A stretch of 18,390 bases of DNA, from UHGV virus genome UHGV-1669119; one strand, written 5' to 3'. The translations under genes and the position numbers were made by a program. The stretch is from a virus. Below, one piece after another: positions 1,039-7,043 of the stretch (position 1 is the first letter of the stretch; the number at the start of each line of letters is the position of its first letter). A model generated the notes under the pieces. That model was not told where the DNA came from. It ran no database searches and saw only the letters and a program-made list of their open reading frames with translations.

Positions 1039-1563
1039 TTACCGGGACTGTTCTATTTGTCGGACACCAGCCAACTGGTTATTCGCCTTCTCGATGGCTG
1101 CCAACAGTGGGTTAATCCACAGAACAGCCTGGCAATATGTCAACGTTCTGGGGGTAGTGGCACGATCACCGGCTGAGTCAATGTCCCCGGAATCGGCGTG
1201 CAATGCGCTGGCGCGTAAACGGTTCGCGTAGTTGAGCAACCCGACAGCAATATCAACAGGAACAGGGAAATCACAGTTCTTTTCACGGAGCAGAACCTCA
1301 CGGTATTTGATGACTGTCTTCTCGTGACCGATGTCGACCAGAGAATTTAATCGGCTTGCGTTTTCTGCTATCTGGTTAAAACGATTGAAGTTTAATGCCT
1401 GATTAGCTATCACTTTCCCTTGATATTCAGCTTCACCTTCCGCTTTATCAGCCCGCAACTTTTCTGCCTGATACTTGCTGTGGTAATGGTTTGCAGACCA
1501 GACGAGCGCCCCAAAGGCAGAGAAGAAAAATGCCGCGATGACAATCTTATAAGTCAGCTTCAT
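1039..1563 (-). CDS. Rz: Rz-like i-spanin (inner-membrane spanin subunit)
   Basis: 174 aa with N-terminal transmembrane segment (IVIAAFFFSAFGALVW), immediately after the endolysin with a 17-nt overlap, and containing an embedded lipoprotein ORF in the +1 frame. Sequence is not lambda Rz-like; call rests on position and architecture. Confidence 0.65.
   Translation of the reverse strand: MKLTYKIVIAAFFFSAFGALVWSANHYHSKYQAEKLRADKAEGEAEYQGKVIANQALNFNRFNQIAENASRLNSLVDIGHEKTVIKYREVLLREKNCDFPVPVDIAVGLLNYANRLRASALHADSGDIDSAGDRATTPRTLTYCQAVLWINPLLAAIEKANNQLAGVRQIEQSR
1140..1286 (-). CDS. Rz1: Rz1-like o-spanin (outer-membrane lipoprotein), embedded in Rz in the +1 frame
   Basis: Not in the ORF track (48 codons, GTG start at 1284-1286; alternative GTG at 1299-1301). 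Hand translation: VKRTVISLFLLILLSGCSTTRTVYAPAHCTPIPGTLTQPVIVPLPPER-stop. Lipobox L-S-G-C followed by a proline-rich mature part; stop TGA at 1140-1142. Confidence 0.55.
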   Translation of the reverse strand: MKRTVISLFLLILLSGCSTTRTVYAPAHCTPIPGTLTQPVIVPLPPER

Positions 1564-2023
1564 TTACCACCCCACCAGCATCTTTAAACCTGGAAATCAG
1601 GTCACCGATTTTATGTTCATACTGACCGTAACCTGCACCAGGTAACGACGCCCAGATATTGCTGCAACGGTCGATTGCCTGACGAATATCGCCACGGTCA
1701 ATCATCGGTAAAGCGCCACGCTCTTTAATCTGCTGCAGCGCCACAGCGTCCTGACTTTCTGGCGAAAAATCTTTCAGGCCAAGCTGCTTACGGTAGGCAT
1801 CCCACCAGCGTGAAAGAAGCTGATACCGGCCTGCGGCTGTTGATTTAAGCTTCGGGTTTAGCGTGACAAGTTTGCGAGGGTGATCGGAGTAATCAGTGAA
1901 CAACTCACCTCCGACAATAACGTCATAACCGTGATTACGTGTCGGTTGTCGCCCGTTATCCGTTCCTTCTGACCATGCCACCATATCCAGGAAAGCTTTA
2001 CGTTGGGAATTTAGTGTCTGCAT
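1547..2023 (-). CDS. R: Endolysin, lambda R-type lytic transglycosylase
   Basis: 158 aa; ...QRKAFLDMVAWSEGTDNGRQPTRNHGYDVIVGGELFTDYSDHPRK...DRCSNIWASLPGAGYGQ... is near-identical over long stretches to phage lambda R as I recall it. AAGGAG Shine-Dalgarno 7 nt upstream of ATG 2021-2023. Confidence 0.9.
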   Translation of the reverse strand: MQTLNSQRKAFLDMVAWSEGTDNGRQPTRNHGYDVIVGGELFTDYSDHPRKLVTLNPKLKSTAAGRYQLLSRWWDAYRKQLGLKDFSPESQDAVALQQIKERGALPMIDRGDIRQAIDRCSNIWASLPGAGYGQYEHKIGDLISRFKDAGGVVNEADL

Positions 2024-2026
2024 GAA

Positions 2027-2368
2027 TTACTCCTTAGAGCCACCAAACTTGTTACCGATTACTCGCATTGCAGCCCCACGAATAGCATCGACACCGATCA
2101 GCCCAACACCACCACCAATGGCAACAGAAAGCGATTTAGGCCATCCAACATACTCAAGAGCGGATGCAAAGGTCAGCGTCAGAGCACCACAGAGCAAAAT
2201 CTCAAGCGTTTTTCGTTTCCAGCCGCCGCCACCGCCAAAATAGGCAATGCGCAAACCAGCCATAACAATTGACATAACCACTGCGCCCAACGGCGTATCT
2301 CCACGCCACCAACTTTGTAAGAGTTCCAGTAAGTCAGGCCAGGAATGAGGAGCATTGTGCATTTTCAT
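2027..2368 (-). CDS. Class I holin with dual-start Met-Lys-Met motif
   Basis: Track ORF 2027..2386; likely true start is the MKM motif (ATG 2366-2368 and 2360-2362) preceded by GGAGGTGGG. Three predicted transmembrane segments and a charged C-terminal tail; immediately upstream of the endolysin. Confidence 0.8.
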   Translation of the reverse strand: MKMHNAPHSWPDLLELLQSWWRGDTPLGAVVMSIVMAGLRIAYFGGGGGWKRKTLEILLCGALTLTFASALEYVGWPKSLSVAIGGGVGLIGVDAIRGAAMRVIGNKFGGSKE

Positions 2369-2470
2369 ACTTCCCACCTCCGCCATTACGGGGTGTTGTT
2401 GAAAGGCGGGCCCTGCGTATACGCCCGTAGGATTGGGTTATGAGCCGTCCTTCGGTGGGCCCTGAATACA

Positions 2471-2493
2471 AAAAAAGTTCGCCATAGCGAACC
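2471..2493 (-). terminator. Rho-independent terminator (minus strand) in the late-operon leader, about 100 nt upstream of the holin
   Basis: Minus-strand RNA GUUCGC-UAUG-GCGAAC followed by UUUUUUU (plus-strand A7 at 2471-2477; stem 2478-2493). Position is compatible with a tR'-like terminator that Q would read through. Confidence 0.5.
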
Positions 2494-2719
2494 TTGTTAA
2501 ATTTGTTAAAAAAGGAGGTTATTTAACATAATGTATGTTATAGGAACCACACGATCCCCGCTCGCAATAGATTTGCGATGAAAGGCCTATTTAATCAACT
2601 TAAGTGGTCCAGAATGACGAAATTCGAGTGAATAAAAGGTGCATAAAAAAGGGCAAAAACTGCATAGCGTTTTTTCGCAGCGAAAGCCCTGTTTTATTAA
2701 CTTTTCCCCAGAATGGGGC

Positions 2720-2746
2720 AATAAAAAAGGCCCCCTTGCGGAAGCC
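2720..2746 (-). terminator. Candidate rho-independent terminator (minus strand) downstream of the Q / 113-aa ORF pair
   Basis: Minus-strand RNA GGCUUCC-GCAA-GGGGGCC (GNRA-type loop, two G-U wobble pairs) followed by UUUUUUAUU. Lies about 65 nt after the stop of ORF 2814..3155. Confidence 0.4.
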
Positions 2747-2813
2747 TCTTCGTGATGAACTGTTTTCAACGGATATCAGGCTAATCGGCTTTTTGGAATT
2801 CCACAACTATTTT

Positions 2814-3155
2814 TTATCTTACCTTGATGCCTGATGCCGTCAGATGTTTACGACAGTCCTGAATACCTTCGTTATAACCCGCATCGTAGAAGCTATCCGG
2901 CTTTGCCTTCAGCGCAGGAAGCGTAACGCTGGTAGCTCTTCGTTCGGCCAGAACACCTGCCTGAAAGAGTGTCCACATCAACTGAACTGCTGAATCACAG
3001 TAAGTAACATCTTCACTGTACAATTCTCGTTCAATCCTGATGCCAAGTTGAGCCTTCATTGATGCGCTAATATTACCTTTGACCTGCAACGACAGGTCTG
3101 GGTACCTCTGTTCCATGAAGCTTTCAAATCTGTTGCGAACGCTGATCAGAGCCAT
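2814..3155 (-). CDS. Hypothetical protein (113 aa) between Q and the late leader
   Basis: ATG 3153-3155 with AAGGGA 6 nt upstream; 31 nt after the Q stop and in a different frame. An in-frame stop 3 codons upstream of the ATG shows it is not a frameshifted Q extension. No recognisable motifs. Confidence 0.55.
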   Translation of the reverse strand: MALISVRNRFESFMEQRYPDLSLQVKGNISASMKAQLGIRIERELYSEDVTYCDSAVQLMWTLFQAGVLAERRATSVTLPALKAKPDSFYDAGYNEGIQDCRKHLTASGIKVR

Positions 3156-3186
3156 CTGGTTCCCTTACGTGATTGATTGCTGGATA

Positions 3187-3609
3187 TTATGCCGCCGAGC
3201 AGCTCCTACGCAAAGTCCTGATAGCCTGAGGCTTTGACTGAACCGACTGATCCATTTCGAGCACCACATCCAGCATGGCTAAGCAACCGTCAATAAATCC
3301 CTCTGCCGCCTGAAGCCTCTTCAGAACGTGGGTGTGAGATACGCCGAGCTTCTCACCCATCGCCCGCACGGGCATGGCCTGGACGTAATGCCACTCAAGG
3401 AGCGTGCACAGATACGGATCTTTTTTCTTCAGGCAGCTCATAGCGGAGTTGATGATAAGACCGTCATTGTCACTGCATTTCAGCCTTCCAGACTGCGTCG
3501 CGGGTAGCAGATTCTTAAACCCGGCTGCAACAGGAGGAAAGTAGACACTACCACCTTCACTCGCTGCCCAGCCACCCCAGCGCTCTAAAACCTGTTGAAT
3601 ATTACGCAT
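3187..3609 (-). CDS. Q: Late-gene antitermination protein Q (DLP12 QuuD / phage 21-82 type)
   Basis: 140 aa; MRNIQQVLERWGGWAA...CSDNDGL...LKRLQAAEGFIDGCLAMLDVVLEMD closely parallels the QuuD-type Q sequence as I recall it (MRDIQMVLERWGAWAA...). Located upstream of the lysis cassette in the same orientation. Confidence 0.75.
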   Translation of the reverse strand: MRNIQQVLERWGGWAASEGGSVYFPPVAAGFKNLLPATQSGRLKCSDNDGLIINSAMSCLKKKDPYLCTLLEWHYVQAMPVRAMGEKLGVSHTHVLKRLQAAEGFIDGCLAMLDVVLEMDQSVQSKPQAIRTLRRSCSAA

Positions 3610-3662
3610 AGCTCTGACCTCTACGTTTTGCTACGAAAAAATTTTCTGAGAACCACGTTTGT

Positions 3663-3682
3663 TTATCCGTGGGTGTGGATAA
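3663..3682. promoter_or_regulatory. DnaA-box pair: inverted TTATCCGTG / TGTGGATAA (reverse strand matches the TTATCCACA consensus exactly)
   Basis: Plus 3674-3682 tgtggataa is the reverse complement of the DnaA box consensus TTATCCACA; an imperfect inverted copy sits at 3663-3671. Located 60 nt from the iteron cluster. Confidence 0.4.
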
Positions 3683-3796
3683 CGCAGTTCCGATTCGCTT
3701 ATTACACGCTGTTATGTGCAAAAAATTCCTTGTTCGGCCTGTACCAACCTGTACCCACCTGTACCAGCTCTTTTCAAACCTTTTCCCCAAGCGACT

Positions 3797-3809
3797 TATA
3801 TATATATAT
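3797..3809. repeat. (TA)n dinucleotide tract, candidate DNA unwinding element
   Basis: tatatatatatat at 3797-3809, centred between the direct and inverted iteron blocks. Confidence 0.85.
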
Positions 3810-3870
3810 GGGGTTCTTAGTAATTAGGTTGGTACAGATGGTACAGTTGGTACTGGCCTTTAAATTCAAT

Positions 3871-3909
3871 TAGTTAAAATGTACCAACCTCTATTTTGAG
3901 GTTGGTACA
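3871..3909 (-). terminator. Hairpin plus U-tract at the primase 3' end (minus strand); formed by an iteron inverted pair
   Basis: 12-bp perfect inverted repeat TGTACCAACCTC / GAGGTTGGTACA (3880-3909) with a 6-nt spacer overlapping the primase stop codon; followed on the minus strand by UUUUAACUAAUU. May act as both terminator and iteron pair. Confidence 0.35.
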
Positions 3910-6083
3910 GGTTGGGACACCGCCTCAAAAATTCGAGTCATTTTCCCCCCAATTCGCCTTTGGGCACGCTTATACCCGCAATTTTGCAAAACATTACTAA
4001 TTCGCATTTCTTCGCGTTTTCCGATGCGGTCAGGATTTAGCCCAATCGCATCACGCAAAACATCACTTGCGCGTAAAAATTCGCAATTTCGCGGAAGTTC
4101 ATTAGTCATCAGGTCTGGCGTGTCGAGCCATTTCTCTACCGTTTCAAGCCAAGCATCCTTGATGGTGTACTGTTCATGGACACTCGCTGCCAGTTGTTCA
4201 GCCTCACGGAACTGGATACCCCCCAGACGCTGAAACACCTCACGAGCCTCAGCCCAAAGTAAAAGGAGATCTCTTTTTATCGCTTTCACGTCGACTTTCG
4301 ACACTTCCACGGGGAGCCAGCGACGGTTACCAGTCTTGTCCGCAAGGAATTCGTCCTCATTGGTGGTACCAACGAACACCAGGCGACGAGGAAACTGGGT
4401 GGCGAACTCCCGGTATTTCGGGATCCAGTTTTCGTGAGTACGCGTCACAAACGCTTTGATTGACTCCAGCTCTTTGGTATTAAGTCCGCGCAGTTCACCA
4501 ATCTCTGCCACCAGCCGACCACGCATTTTTCGAGCGAGATCATCGTCTTTTTCGGCAAAAGAGATTTCAGTAAAAAACGCAGGATCAGGGCTCAGTGCCT
4601 CCACTCCGGAAGACTTACCGCAGCCCTGCGGACCAACGAGGATCGGCACCATATCCGCTTTGATGCCTGGCTCCAGTACTCGCCCCGCCAACGCGGTCCA
4701 CATGTACATAGACACCGCACGGGTATAAGGCGTGTCGGCGGTACCGAAGTGCGTATGGTAGAAACATTCGATGCGCGGCACGCCATCCCACTCCAGTCCG
4801 TTCAGCCAAGTGATCGCTGAATCGAATGGTTGTTCATCGGCTGCAAGTAACACCACATCGCGAATAAGTTCACGACCAACAGGTTTAAATCCCCGCTTTT
4901 CCATCGTGATGCGCAGGCGCGCATAATCCGCATCGGTGAATGCCCGCCATTGTCCGGATCCTGCAGGGGCAAACATGATTTCGTCGCGGAACTGGTCAAA
5001 GCGAATATCGATGTCCACAAAATCAGGGCGTACTACTGCTTTGGCTGCGTTGCTGATTGTTGCCTCGATACGCCCCCATTTATCACGCTCGAAAGCAGGC
5101 AGCGGTAAAGGTTCCGCCACTTCGGTGCTGGTCAGATCTTCGAAATCGTCGTTGCGGATCCCGATGGCATTAAGGAAATCTCCGTCATCACGATGCGCAC
5201 AACTGGCATGCAGGCATTTAAAATGCCCCTGCTCAAAGCCCGCGGTTCCCGCAGGAAAATAAACTGTGCTTGTTGGATCGCCCCCGCTACTGTGGCCGTC
5301 TTCAAACGGACAGCGGATATATCGTTCACCATTTGCGCCATCCAGCAGCGTCCAGCCATTGGCATCAAGATATTCAGCTGTATCATCCGTCGCGCCGGGC
5401 GTGAATGCTGATCGGTCGCGCATCTTCGTGTTGCCCGCTTCGGTGGTTACCGACACAGGGAGTTGTTCAGCCAGGCGCTGCCACAGCGTTTCAAGCTGCT
5501 CACCAGTAATAGCCGGAGGTTCATCCGGCAAACCGCCGTCCCATTCAATACGCGCGCCGCTGCTGTGCGTACCGCAGGCAACGAACTGCTGCCCGTTCGC
5601 CAGCAACTCGATAATGCCCATATCCCCCGCCAGGCGATGGATACGCTTACGGAAATCACCATCAACGGCCAGCAGATACAGACACTTATTACTGTTTGCT
5701 CGCCAGCGTCGCGGCGGCAACTCACCCAGAAGTTGCACAAGCGTTTTGCGAATATCTGCCTGAATGTCTTCATCTTCGCTATCACAGTCCAGCGCCAGCC
5801 AGCCATGGCCTGTACGCACGCAGATGCCATAATCCGGTTCATTCGACCAGCGGGCAAAATCATGCTCAGTAACAACATGCCCGGTCCATTGAGCAATACC
5901 GGTGACCTGGCGGTCCCGGTTATAGCGACTCGGCGTCTTACCCAACGCTTTCAGTTTACTATCAGGGGATATGGTCGCACTGGGGTTACATACAACTGGG
6001 AGAAGATGATCAGTTCTCCCCAATACCAGGTCGAAATGAAACCACTCATCAGGCGTAGCTCCCCATGGTTTGCTATCGGACAT
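3891..6083 (-). CDS. Replication primase/helicase-like protein: N-terminal bifunctional primase-polymerase domain plus C-terminal VirE/P-loop NTPase domain (P4 alpha-like)
   Basis: 730 aa. N-terminal prim-pol style motifs (GICVRTGHGWLALDCDSED), central Cys/His cluster (CPFEDGH...HFKCLHASCAH), Walker A VGPQGCGKSS. Start ATG 6081-6083 is 3 nt after the cro stop. Confidence 0.8.
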   Translation of the reverse strand: MSDSKPWGATPDEWFHFDLVLGRTDHLLPVVCNPSATISPDSKLKALGKTPSRYNRDRQVTGIAQWTGHVVTEHDFARWSNEPDYGICVRTGHGWLALDCDSEDEDIQADIRKTLVQLLGELPPRRWRANSNKCLYLLAVDGDFRKRIHRLAGDMGIIELLANGQQFVACGTHSSGARIEWDGGLPDEPPAITGEQLETLWQRLAEQLPVSVTTEAGNTKMRDRSAFTPGATDDTAEYLDANGWTLLDGANGERYIRCPFEDGHSSGGDPTSTVYFPAGTAGFEQGHFKCLHASCAHRDDGDFLNAIGIRNDDFEDLTSTEVAEPLPLPAFERDKWGRIEATISNAAKAVVRPDFVDIDIRFDQFRDEIMFAPAGSGQWRAFTDADYARLRITMEKRGFKPVGRELIRDVVLLAADEQPFDSAITWLNGLEWDGVPRIECFYHTHFGTADTPYTRAVSMYMWTALAGRVLEPGIKADMVPILVGPQGCGKSSGVEALSPDPAFFTEISFAEKDDDLARKMRGRLVAEIGELRGLNTKELESIKAFVTRTHENWIPKYREFATQFPRRLVFVGTTNEDEFLADKTGNRRWLPVEVSKVDVKAIKRDLLLLWAEAREVFQRLGGIQFREAEQLAASVHEQYTIKDAWLETVEKWLDTPDLMTNELPRNCEFLRASDVLRDAIGLNPDRIGKREEMRISNVLQNCGYKRAQRRIGGKMTRIFEAVSQPVPTSK

Positions 6084-6086
6084 GGG

Positions 6087-6299
6087 TTAAGCCTTTTTAT
6101 CGTTTTGTGAGCCATACAACAGCCAATTAGGGTCGCAATCCAATGCTATAGACATTTCAAGAAGATAACGTGGCCGAGCAATAACACCACTTTCAATTCT
6201 GTTTATTGCCTGCTGGCTCACTCCTGTGAGCTCAGCCAACGTAACTTGCGTCATTTTGAGTTCTTTACGTCGTTCTTTTACTCGGGTCGCTAAGGTCAT
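6087..6299 (-). CDS. cro: Cro-like HTH repressor (XRE family)
   Basis: Track ORF 6087..6317 begins at a TTG; likely ATG start at 6297-6299 with GAGGTGA upstream, giving a 70-aa protein MTLATRVKERRKELKMTQVTLAELTGVSQQAINRIESG... Divergent from the cI-like gene and similar to the N-terminal HTH of that repressor. Confidence 0.75.
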   Translation of the reverse strand: MTLATRVKERRKELKMTQVTLAELTGVSQQAINRIESGVIARPRYLLEMSIALDCDPNWLLYGSQNDKKA

Positions 6300-6317
6300 T
6301 GCTTTCACCTCATACAA

Positions 6318-6419
6318 TTTTAGTGGTATTTAGCAACAACAAACGAGGTTTGTCAAATACAACAAAAATTGTTTTTAATGTGGGGATACACATTAATACA
6401 ACCCAGAAGGACTAATCCC
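6318..6419. promoter_or_regulatory. Immunity-region operator/promoter interval (OR-like) between divergent cro and cI
   Basis: Palindromes with ACAA...TTGT half-sites: ACAAACGAGGTTTGT (6338-6352) and ACAACAAAAATTGT (6358-6373). GAAGGA Shine-Dalgarno for cI at 6405-6410. Confidence 0.5.
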
Positions 6420-7043
6420 ATGTCTCTCGCAGCCCGTTTTAAAGCACGTCGTTTGGAATTAGGAATGACTCAAGTGGAAGTAGCGAATTCTGCAGGGGTT
6501 AGCCAACAATCCATAGAATCCATCGAAAGTGGACGAACCAGAAAGCCACGCAATCTTCTGGATCTGGCTAAGGCCTTGAAATGTAGCCCAGACTGGCTAC
6601 TGAACGGTAAAAATATTATGCCTCTCGCGGAGATAAGTACCAGACGCATACCTATATTAAGTTACGTTCAGGCAGGAGAGCTTACAGAAGCAAGAGACAT
6701 AACAGATCTGACAGGGGAATTTGAATATATTTTGGCAGACTCTGACATTCCAGAAACATGCTTCGCATTACGTATCGATGGCGACAGCATGCAACCAGAG
6801 TTTAAAGAAGGAGACATTGTTATCATCGATCCTGATCTATGTCCTGCACCAGGGGAGTTTGTTGTCGCCAAAAACGACGGTCACGAAGCTACATTTAAAA
6901 AATACCGTCCATTAGGAATCGGCATCGACGACTTTGAATTAATCCCCCTAAATCCTGATTACCCTATTTTTCGTAGTGCAGATATGAACTTACAGATCAT
7001 AGGTGTAATGATCGAACACCGTATTTACCGCCGTAAACGTTAG
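6420..7043 (+). CDS. cI: CI-like repressor: N-terminal HTH_XRE plus C-terminal S24 (LexA-like) self-cleaving peptidase domain
   Basis: Track ORF starts at TTG 6369; likely true start is ATG 6420 (MSLAARFKARRLELGMTQVEVANSAGVSQQSIESIESG...). Ala-Gly cleavage motif (VQAGE), catalytic GDSM serine and downstream FKK lysine. Confidence 0.85.
   Translation: MSLAARFKARRLELGMTQVEVANSAGVSQQSIESIESGRTRKPRNLLDLAKALKCSPDWLLNGKNIMPLAEISTRRIPILSYVQAGELTEARDITDLTGEFEYILADSDIPETCFALRIDGDSMQPEFKEGDIVIIDPDLCPAPGEFVVAKNDGHEATFKKYRPLGIGIDDFELIPLNPDYPIFRSADMNLQIIGVMIEHRIYRRKR

Follow-up and report, generated by a model that had tools for sequence, protein, structure and literature searches.

The window, which is the whole 18,390-nt stretch of the virus genome UHGV-1669119 that was analysed, carries on its minus strand a Q-type antiterminator gene, a 113-codon ORF, a predicted late promoter (PR', 2806-2778), a predicted terminator (tR', 2748-2723), a leader and a holin gene, in that order (Table 1). 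The initial annotation had described a 113-aa gene here without stating its strand, and exactly this ORF was identified. It begins 31 nt downstream of the Q gene and ends with a stop codon at 2816-2814. The ribosome-binding site of its own that had been claimed for it was also recovered.

Table 1. Positions of the features discussed (in the window unless another sequence is named)
Feature	Position	Strand	Basis or remark
113-aa ORF	2814-3155	minus	ATG start, 113 codons
Ribosome-binding site AAGGGA	3161-3166	minus	5 nt 5' of the ATG at 3155-3153; read from the sequence
Deleted 286-bp segment	2868-3153	minus	absent in 689R2-type phages and ~32 E. coli genomes
PR' (predicted late promoter)	2778-2806	minus	position and conservation
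First intrinsic terminator after PR', putative tR'	2723-2748	minus	GAGGCUUCC-GCAA-GGGGGCCUUUUUU; RNAfold -17.1 kcal/mol
Second hairpin and U-tract, terminator-like, in the leader	2645-2691	minus	-14.6 kcal/mol
Third intrinsic terminator, in the leader	2470-2495	minus	-10.4 kcal/mol
Lambda-S-type holin, first late gene	2027-2368	minus	PF05106; RefSeq start
Q-type antiterminator, 140 aa	3187-3609	minus	PF06530 Phage_antitermQ, E=5e-42
VapE primase	3891-6083	minus	
cro-like gene	6087-6317	minus	
cI/LexA-like repressor, divergent	6369-7043	plus	
phiTE_015	L050:5364-5648	minus	founder gene, Pectobacterium phage phiTE

Judged from its sequence, the ORF is a genuine gene and not a chance reading frame. 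At least 1000 public contigs encode exactly this 113-aa protein, and comparison with a homologue of 85% identity gave a dN/dS of 0.07, a value that the Q gene shares. The short length of the frame, and the absence of matches for it and four homologues in NCBIfam and in a local Pfam copy (one without the PF26207 model), could suggest that it is spurious. This is barely credible, however, given the low dN/dS, the PHROG profile matches, full-length homologues that keep conserved motifs at identities down to 28%, and a structure model that is confidently folded (pLDDT >80 across the core helices).

The protein is identical to RefSeq WP_001174015.1, named "hypothetical protein" in older annotations and "phiTE_015 family protein" in recent ones. 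The statement that it belongs to no recognisable family does not hold. It matches phrog_343 over nearly its full length (E=2.8e-18), with partial matches to phrog_37465 and phrog_15831, and precomputed annotation assigns the Pfam family PF26207 (PF26207.1, Phage_phiTE_015) to most homologues as well as to the representatives of its cluster, P0001 and P0002, which are 98% identical to it. A comparison by hhalign of the 23-sequence family alignment (A3) with phiTE_015 itself gave a probability of 83% (E=8.8e-6) over 81 columns, with motifs in common. The label "head closure", attached to phrog_15831, was considered and rejected: this profile matches the C-terminal half only, and the genomic context offers no support for a virion role. 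This is a small family: 1.84 billion proteins include 16 representatives of it at 50% identity. Full-length homologues in other Enterobacterales are 28-50% identical to the window protein, and those at 37-50% identity come from Rahnella, Yersinia, Proteus, Providencia and Xenorhabdus. A pattern scan of genome contigs returned matches, none of which was confirmed by tblastn. A literature search found nothing relevant on phiTE_015, PF26207, phrog_343, the PR' 12-mer or the 689R2 phages. Present sequence records already contain this exact protein and a family for it, no member of which has a known function.

Members of the Phage_phiTE_015 family are, like the ORF product, small proteins of ~90-115 aa. 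Common to both are an N-terminal R-x-x-F-E motif, a central W-containing helix, V-x-L-P, and the C-terminal motif (Y)N/DE-[AG]-I-x-D-C-x-x-x-[LI]-x-x-x-G-[IV]-K. The enterobacterial subgroup that includes the ORF differs from phiTE_015 in having an extra variable insert of ~20 residues (29-46) and a YDAGYNEGI motif, and in adjoining Q. In contrast, phiTE is a virulent myovirus in which phiTE_015 belongs to a cluster of small genes; the surrounding genes include those for DNA polymerase and primase/helicase, and Q is lacking. Within this early cluster phiTE_015 overlaps a Lar-like restriction-alleviation gene, and its neighbours also include NinX-like and HNH genes. Three distant PF26207 members are placed among small phage genes with no Q nearby, one of them downstream of a primase-polymerase gene.

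The 113-aa protein is soluble, with a pI of 8.6, and modelling points to a small alpha/beta fold. Helices are predicted at residues 6-17, 55-74 and 89-107, the strands are short, and the variable insert (residues 29-46) is modelled with low confidence. Few residues are invariant across the family (F10, E11 and P80). No membrane, signal, DNA- or nucleic-acid-binding, or catalytic motif was found in the protein, and the PADLOC defence-system HMMs gave no matches at E<=1. In BFVD the model comes structurally closest to uncharacterised proteins of Salmonella phages Seszw_1 (E=3e-4) and VSt472, and it weakly matches an Ead/Ea22-like protein; the TM-scores range from only 0.33 to 0.44, and no function is known for any of these proteins. 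When the family profile was searched against PDB sequences, nothing matched at E<=10. The remote-homology and structure searches proposed in the initial annotation thus led to a family, through the link to phiTE_015, but not to a resembling solved structure, as the PDB fold search gave only weak, insignificant matches (RuvC and BRCT, E>1).

Over segment 2000-3900 the window matches, at 100% identity, a prophage of E. coli F11, BH100 and Ecol_542 that is integrated beside yfhL. Beyond its Q and lysis modules this prophage cannot be called lambdoid: its baseplate and tail genes are of myovirus type, and its replication module has DNA-polymerase, DUF2800, SNF2 and VapE genes. A 280-nt intergenic region separates the VapE primase gene from Q. 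At 3736-3920 we identified ~10 copies of a 10-11 bp iteron (GGTTGGTACAG / CTGTACCAACC), in both orientations, around an AT-rich ATATATATATATA tract; this region is probably a replication origin served by the adjacent primase. One inverted iteron pair followed by TTTT (3909-3880) also scores as an intrinsic terminator before Q. On the other side of the locus, the holin gene is followed by genes for a GH24 lysozyme, Rz (1039-1563) and the small terminase subunit (terS). Nested in the Rz gene is a lipoprotein ORF (1140-1301, minus strand) of 53 aa with the lipobox LLSGC, which resembles an o-spanin of the Rz1 type. For the holin gene, the longest ORF begins at 2386, and the RefSeq start at 2368, preceded by GGAGGTGGGAAGT, gives an MKM dual start (holin/antiholin).

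The Q gene product is 44% identical to DLP12 QuuD and 61% identical to the Q protein of phiP27. Structures of Q21 are reported to have been deposited (6P1A, 6P1B and 6P1C; doi 10.1101/651190). A PDB sequence search with the window's Q matched no chain, solved Q structures included, so the label "Q21-type" was dropped and the protein is described here as PF06530 / QuuD-like. The main text of the same preprint gives PF06530 for both the Q21/Q933W and the Q82 families (doi 10.1101/651190), which is presumably a typo.

In the established layout, a Q gene is followed by PR', a sigma-dependent pause element and the terminator tR' (Yin et al. 2019, doi 10.1101/651190). Because of this layout, and because of its position and conservation, we interpret the cassette that follows the ORF as the cognate PR'/tR' of Q. 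Its -35 hexamer, TTGTGG (2806-2801), lies 7 nt past the ORF stop and is separated by a 17-nt spacer (AATTCCAAAAAGCCGAT) from the -10 hexamer, TAGCCT (2783-2778). The motif occurs once in the window, against 0.03 occurrences expected. It was not called by a consensus scan because each hexamer matches the consensus at only 3/6 positions. Transcription is predicted to start near 2771, tR' begins ~30 nt past TAGCCT, and the predicted short PR' RNA is ~45-50 nt long. The locus has in common with lambdoid Q cassettes a Q-family gene, a conserved promoter cassette, a terminator ~50 nt further on, and lysis genes. However, PR' directly follows Q in the canonical lambdoid layout, whereas here the ORF is interposed.

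A perfect 10-bp palindrome, TGGAATTCCA (2795-2804, minus strand), lies inside the -35 and spacer region. Every PF06530-type cassette examined retains this candidate Q-binding element. It differs in form from the Q21 binding element, which has been described as a direct repeat (doi 10.1101/651190). Downstream of the ORF, the terminator-rich leader of about 420 nt that had been noted previously is real: it measures 427 nt (2387-2813), or spans 2369-2813 with the RefSeq holin start, and contains three hairpin and U-tract elements. The rest of the leader (2401-2722) is identical to phage 689R2 except at two positions. A GC-rich 64-nt structure (2464-2401, -25 kcal/mol), without an Rfam match, is located just before the holin gene. 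Rfam searches of 2000-4000 returned sub-threshold matches only, on a terminator hairpin.

A moron in Hendrix's sense is an autonomous extra gene between conserved neighbours, equipped with its own promoter and terminator. The initial annotation placed the gene in a moron integration hotspot, and its signals and composition do not bear out a moron character. A promoter scan of the minus strand from 2300 to 3950 called no promoter. No terminator was called between Q and the ORF, and the scan found no terminator private to the ORF; the first one downstream is the tR' of the PR' cassette, which also occurs in loci without the ORF. Base composition is ordinary and not distinct from that of the neighbours (GC 47.1% and GC3 48% in the ORF; GC 53.7% in Q, 50.8% in the holin gene and 50.5% in the window). 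Reading the sequence revealed, where Q ends, a sub-threshold site that resembles a promoter (TTGCGT-16 nt-CATAAT, 3213-3186, matching at 8/12 positions), owing to which some Q-independent or lysogen expression of the ORF is possible.

We scanned IMG/VR for PR' cassettes with the 16-mer TTGTGGAATTCCAAAA. At ~21 loci a PF06530 Q gene ends 18-47 nt 5' of the motif with no gene between. At 17-19 loci the end of Q lies 350-383 nt, and the end of the ORF 5-10 nt, 5' of the motif. The other ~80 matches are unrelated chance ones. In this sample PF26207 is the only family seen in the gap between Q and PR', which is not occupied by varied cargo. Each cassette consists of an A-rich tract, TTGTGG, AATTCCAAAA plus 6-7 further bases (17-nt spacer), TAnnnT, an initial transcribed region and a terminator. 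Across at least 13 distinct ORF-less and 5 ORF-bearing cassette sequences, the -35 hexamer is conserved, and the 17-nt spacer and the -10 positions T1, A2 and T6 are invariant across lineages. A terminator is present 50-90 nt past the cassette in all related loci. The cassette also lies directly 3' of the ORF in L024, L025 and L029, whose ORFs are only 44-47% identical. No recognisable copy was found downstream of quuD in DLP12, which was therefore set aside as a reference.

Complete E. coli genomes gave a similar picture of presence and absence between Q and PR'. The full ORF was identified in 62 of 5426 genomes, this Q allele at full length also in 62, and this PR' cassette in 94-95. The remainder, about 32 of the 94 cassette-bearing genomes, keep only the last 57 nt of the ORF. 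The lesion is a 286-bp deletion, flanked by ATGG/AAGG microhomology, that spares the ATG and the last 54-57 nt and leaves a 9-codon frame. It is present in four deposited phages (vB_EcoM-689R2 and relatives); sequences that show it include L001, L041 and L042, and in L041 and L042, the two deletion genomes examined, the Q allele is 89% identical to that of the window. From this lesion we conclude that the ORF is ancestral to the prophage group and was lost without loss of the prophage lineage.

The gene is therefore found in certain genomes but lacking in relatives that are otherwise collinear, as is typical of a moron, and the description of it as variable cargo is upheld by both the IMG/VR loci without the ORF and the deletion in E. 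coli genomes and phages. The initial annotation had set against this the possibility of a conserved late-regulation component, present in all Q-homologous phages. Such conservation was not found: the ORF does not occur wherever its cognate Q and PR' do, being absent from the ~21 loci with the same Q and PR' and deleted in ~32 of the 94 E. coli genomes. Judging by this distribution, it is an accessory, dispensable phage gene. The 286-bp deletion constitutes a ready-made natural knockout for comparison.

Perhaps the most intriguing feature of the family is its repeated adjacency to Q genes of different kinds. Of 18 diverse loci, 17 have a homologue of 37-50% identity no more than ~200 nt from a Q-type gene. 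The neighbour on its 5' side is a PF06530 Q in the window, L021, L024, L025/26, L029 and L032; a lambda-type Q (PF03589) in L003, L027, L028 and L030; and a DUF1133/PF06576 Q-like protein in L034-L040. The sole exception is L033, where the neighbour is HicB. Among the three Q Pfam families found beside homologues, two are unrelated. In Pm34 the gene comes after those for RusA, KilA-N and Q. In the loci with lambda-type Q or DUF1133, and in L032, Q is separated from the ORF by a promoter and/or a terminator, and a further terminator comes after the ORF. By this arrangement the ORF in these loci is the first late gene, just past PR'-tR'; no terminator is evident before the ORF in L027. The placement is not that of random cargo, as it recurs at the Q junction, and a simple "cargo" reading leaves this recurrence unexplained.

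One locus, L028 (3823-4500), is a hybrid in which a lambda-type Q, PR', tR' and the ORF are followed by a remnant of the PF06530-type initial transcribed region and terminator (TAAGAGT...ACACAGCTTATTGAATTA...). Such a hybrid suggests that recombination carries flanking cassette sequence along with the ORF. We also observed a DNA methyltransferase gene (~350 aa, MKNTVNLNS...DPPYF) that recurs 3' of the ORF in L024, L025/L026 and L035-L039, between the PR' region and the lysis genes. The methyltransferase gene L24 of phiP27 occupies the same slot, and this position is the true late-operon moron slot.

The locus of phiP27 (L171, NC_003356, 1787-6733) allows a direct comparison with a Shiga toxin phage. 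Its order is Q, L22, the PR' cassette (TTGCGG-AATTCCAAAAATCCGAA-TATCCT-GTTAAGAGTGG...terminator), the methyltransferase gene, tRNA genes and stx2e, the last ~2 kb downstream of the cassette. L22 (GIY-YIG) has in common with the ORF its slot between a PF06530 Q and the same PR' cassette, but is an unrelated protein of 409 aa. Its presence indicates that the gap between Q and PR' accepts other genes. The position of stx2e past the cassette indicates that the toxin slot lies downstream of the cassette and the ORF slot upstream.

Like the Shiga toxin and nmpC morons (933W, phiP27, DLP12), the ORF is located between Q and the lysis genes and varies among related phages; this part of the comparison drawn in the initial annotation stands. 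The equation with a Shiga-toxin-type slot does not. In phiP27, stx2e lies past PR' and tR' and is preceded by tRNA genes, whereas the ORF lies upstream of PR', on the Q transcript, and nmpC differs from it in being on the opposite strand. A position downstream of PR'-tR', as for the Shiga toxin genes, was found for the homologues beside lambda-type Q and DUF1133 and in L032, and not for the ORF of the window. The true moron slot of the window begins after 2723.

We consider it probable that the ORF is a genuine, conserved but dispensable PF26207 accessory gene, placed between Q and its cognate PR', with a role in the lytic cycle that may be one of protein binding. It would be the last, promoter-distal cistron of the Q transcript, translated via its own ribosome-binding site from an early message that it has in common with Q and that ends at tR'. 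Given its location upstream of PR' and within the Q transcription unit, its expression would follow that of Q without being Q-dependent, unlike that of Shiga toxin genes. Production would then coincide with that of Q, being confined to lytic development and absent from the lysogen. A lytic-phase role is supported by the family members in the early cluster of the virulent phage phiTE, beside the Lar-like gene. More tentatively, we favour a product that would act stoichiometrically by binding a host factor or a component of host defence, in host takeover or counter-defence. Such binding would bring a conditional advantage at the early-to-late transition, as with other small early "host-takeover" proteins. 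This is the weakest step, drawn from context; it is suggested by the size and solubility of the protein, its lack of motifs, its presence in virulent phiTE and its dispensability. The adjacency of homologues to Q genes of three Pfam families is taken in this reading as a matter of position, although it could point to a functional tie with the late switch.

The gene could instead be a moron proper, that is, lysogenic-conversion or fitness cargo in the Q-to-lysis hotspot, expressed from its own signals or late under the control of Q. Its presence in some phages and absence from otherwise collinear ones would fit, as would the ribosome-binding site of its own, the weak promoter-like site at the 3' end of Q, and the occurrence of L22 in the same gap of phiP27, where insertions are evidently accepted. 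We nevertheless regard this as quite unlikely. The ORF is upstream of PR'-tR' and stx2e of phiP27 downstream; there is no scan promoter on the ORF strand, no private terminator and no unusual composition. The family is also found in virulent phiTE, which has no lysogen to convert, and it is the same family, not assorted cargo, that sits at the junction in the IMG/VR sample. Equally, the gene might be a nin-region-like accessory of DNA metabolism, placed last in the early operon and serving replication, recombination or DNA modification. This is very unlikely for a small protein with few invariant residues, no nucleic-acid-binding or catalytic motif and insignificant PDB fold matches, even if one distant member lies downstream of a primase-polymerase gene, the phiTE neighbours include NinX-like, Lar-like and HNH genes, the Pm34 gene comes after RusA, KilA-N and Q, and a VapE primase is encoded in the early operon here.

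The association with Q raises the further possibility that the protein modulates the Q-dependent early-to-late switch, via Q loading, RNA polymerase, NusA, sigma-70 or lysis timing. A homologue lies beside a Q-type gene (PF06530, PF03589 or PF06576), on either side of PR'-tR', in 17/18 loci, and co-expression with Q is predicted in the window. Set against this are the near-identical Q/PR' pairs without the ORF at ~21 loci and the gene-deleted prophage lineage in ~32 E. coli genomes. The lambda-type and PF06530-type Q families have no sequence relationship, which makes a specific Q partner improbable, and distant PF26207 members come from phages where no Q lies near them. The second-cassette remnants in L028 suggest that the linkage could arise via recombination at conserved cassette sequences. 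On balance, a switch modulator is unlikely. A more general form of the idea, a functional link between the early-to-late switch and the PF26207 proteins that temperate phages of enterobacteria encode, is likewise doubtful. The target would have to be something common to all Q types, such as RNA polymerase, sigma-70, NusA or a host response at the onset of late-gene expression. Coupling of this kind would explain why the gene is found within ~200 nt of varied Q families, on either side of PR'-tR', even though it would be dispensable in the laboratory.

For the reading that we favour, an accessory gene expressed in the lytic cycle, the main correction to the earlier view is that the gene belongs to the Q (early) transcript and not to the Q-dependent toxin slot. 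The late promoter and tR' of the window can now be placed at about 2806-2723. If the adjacency to different kinds of Q gene reflects function, the PF26207 family would represent a hitherto overlooked accessory factor in the late switch of temperate phages of enterobacteria, relatives of Stx phages among them.
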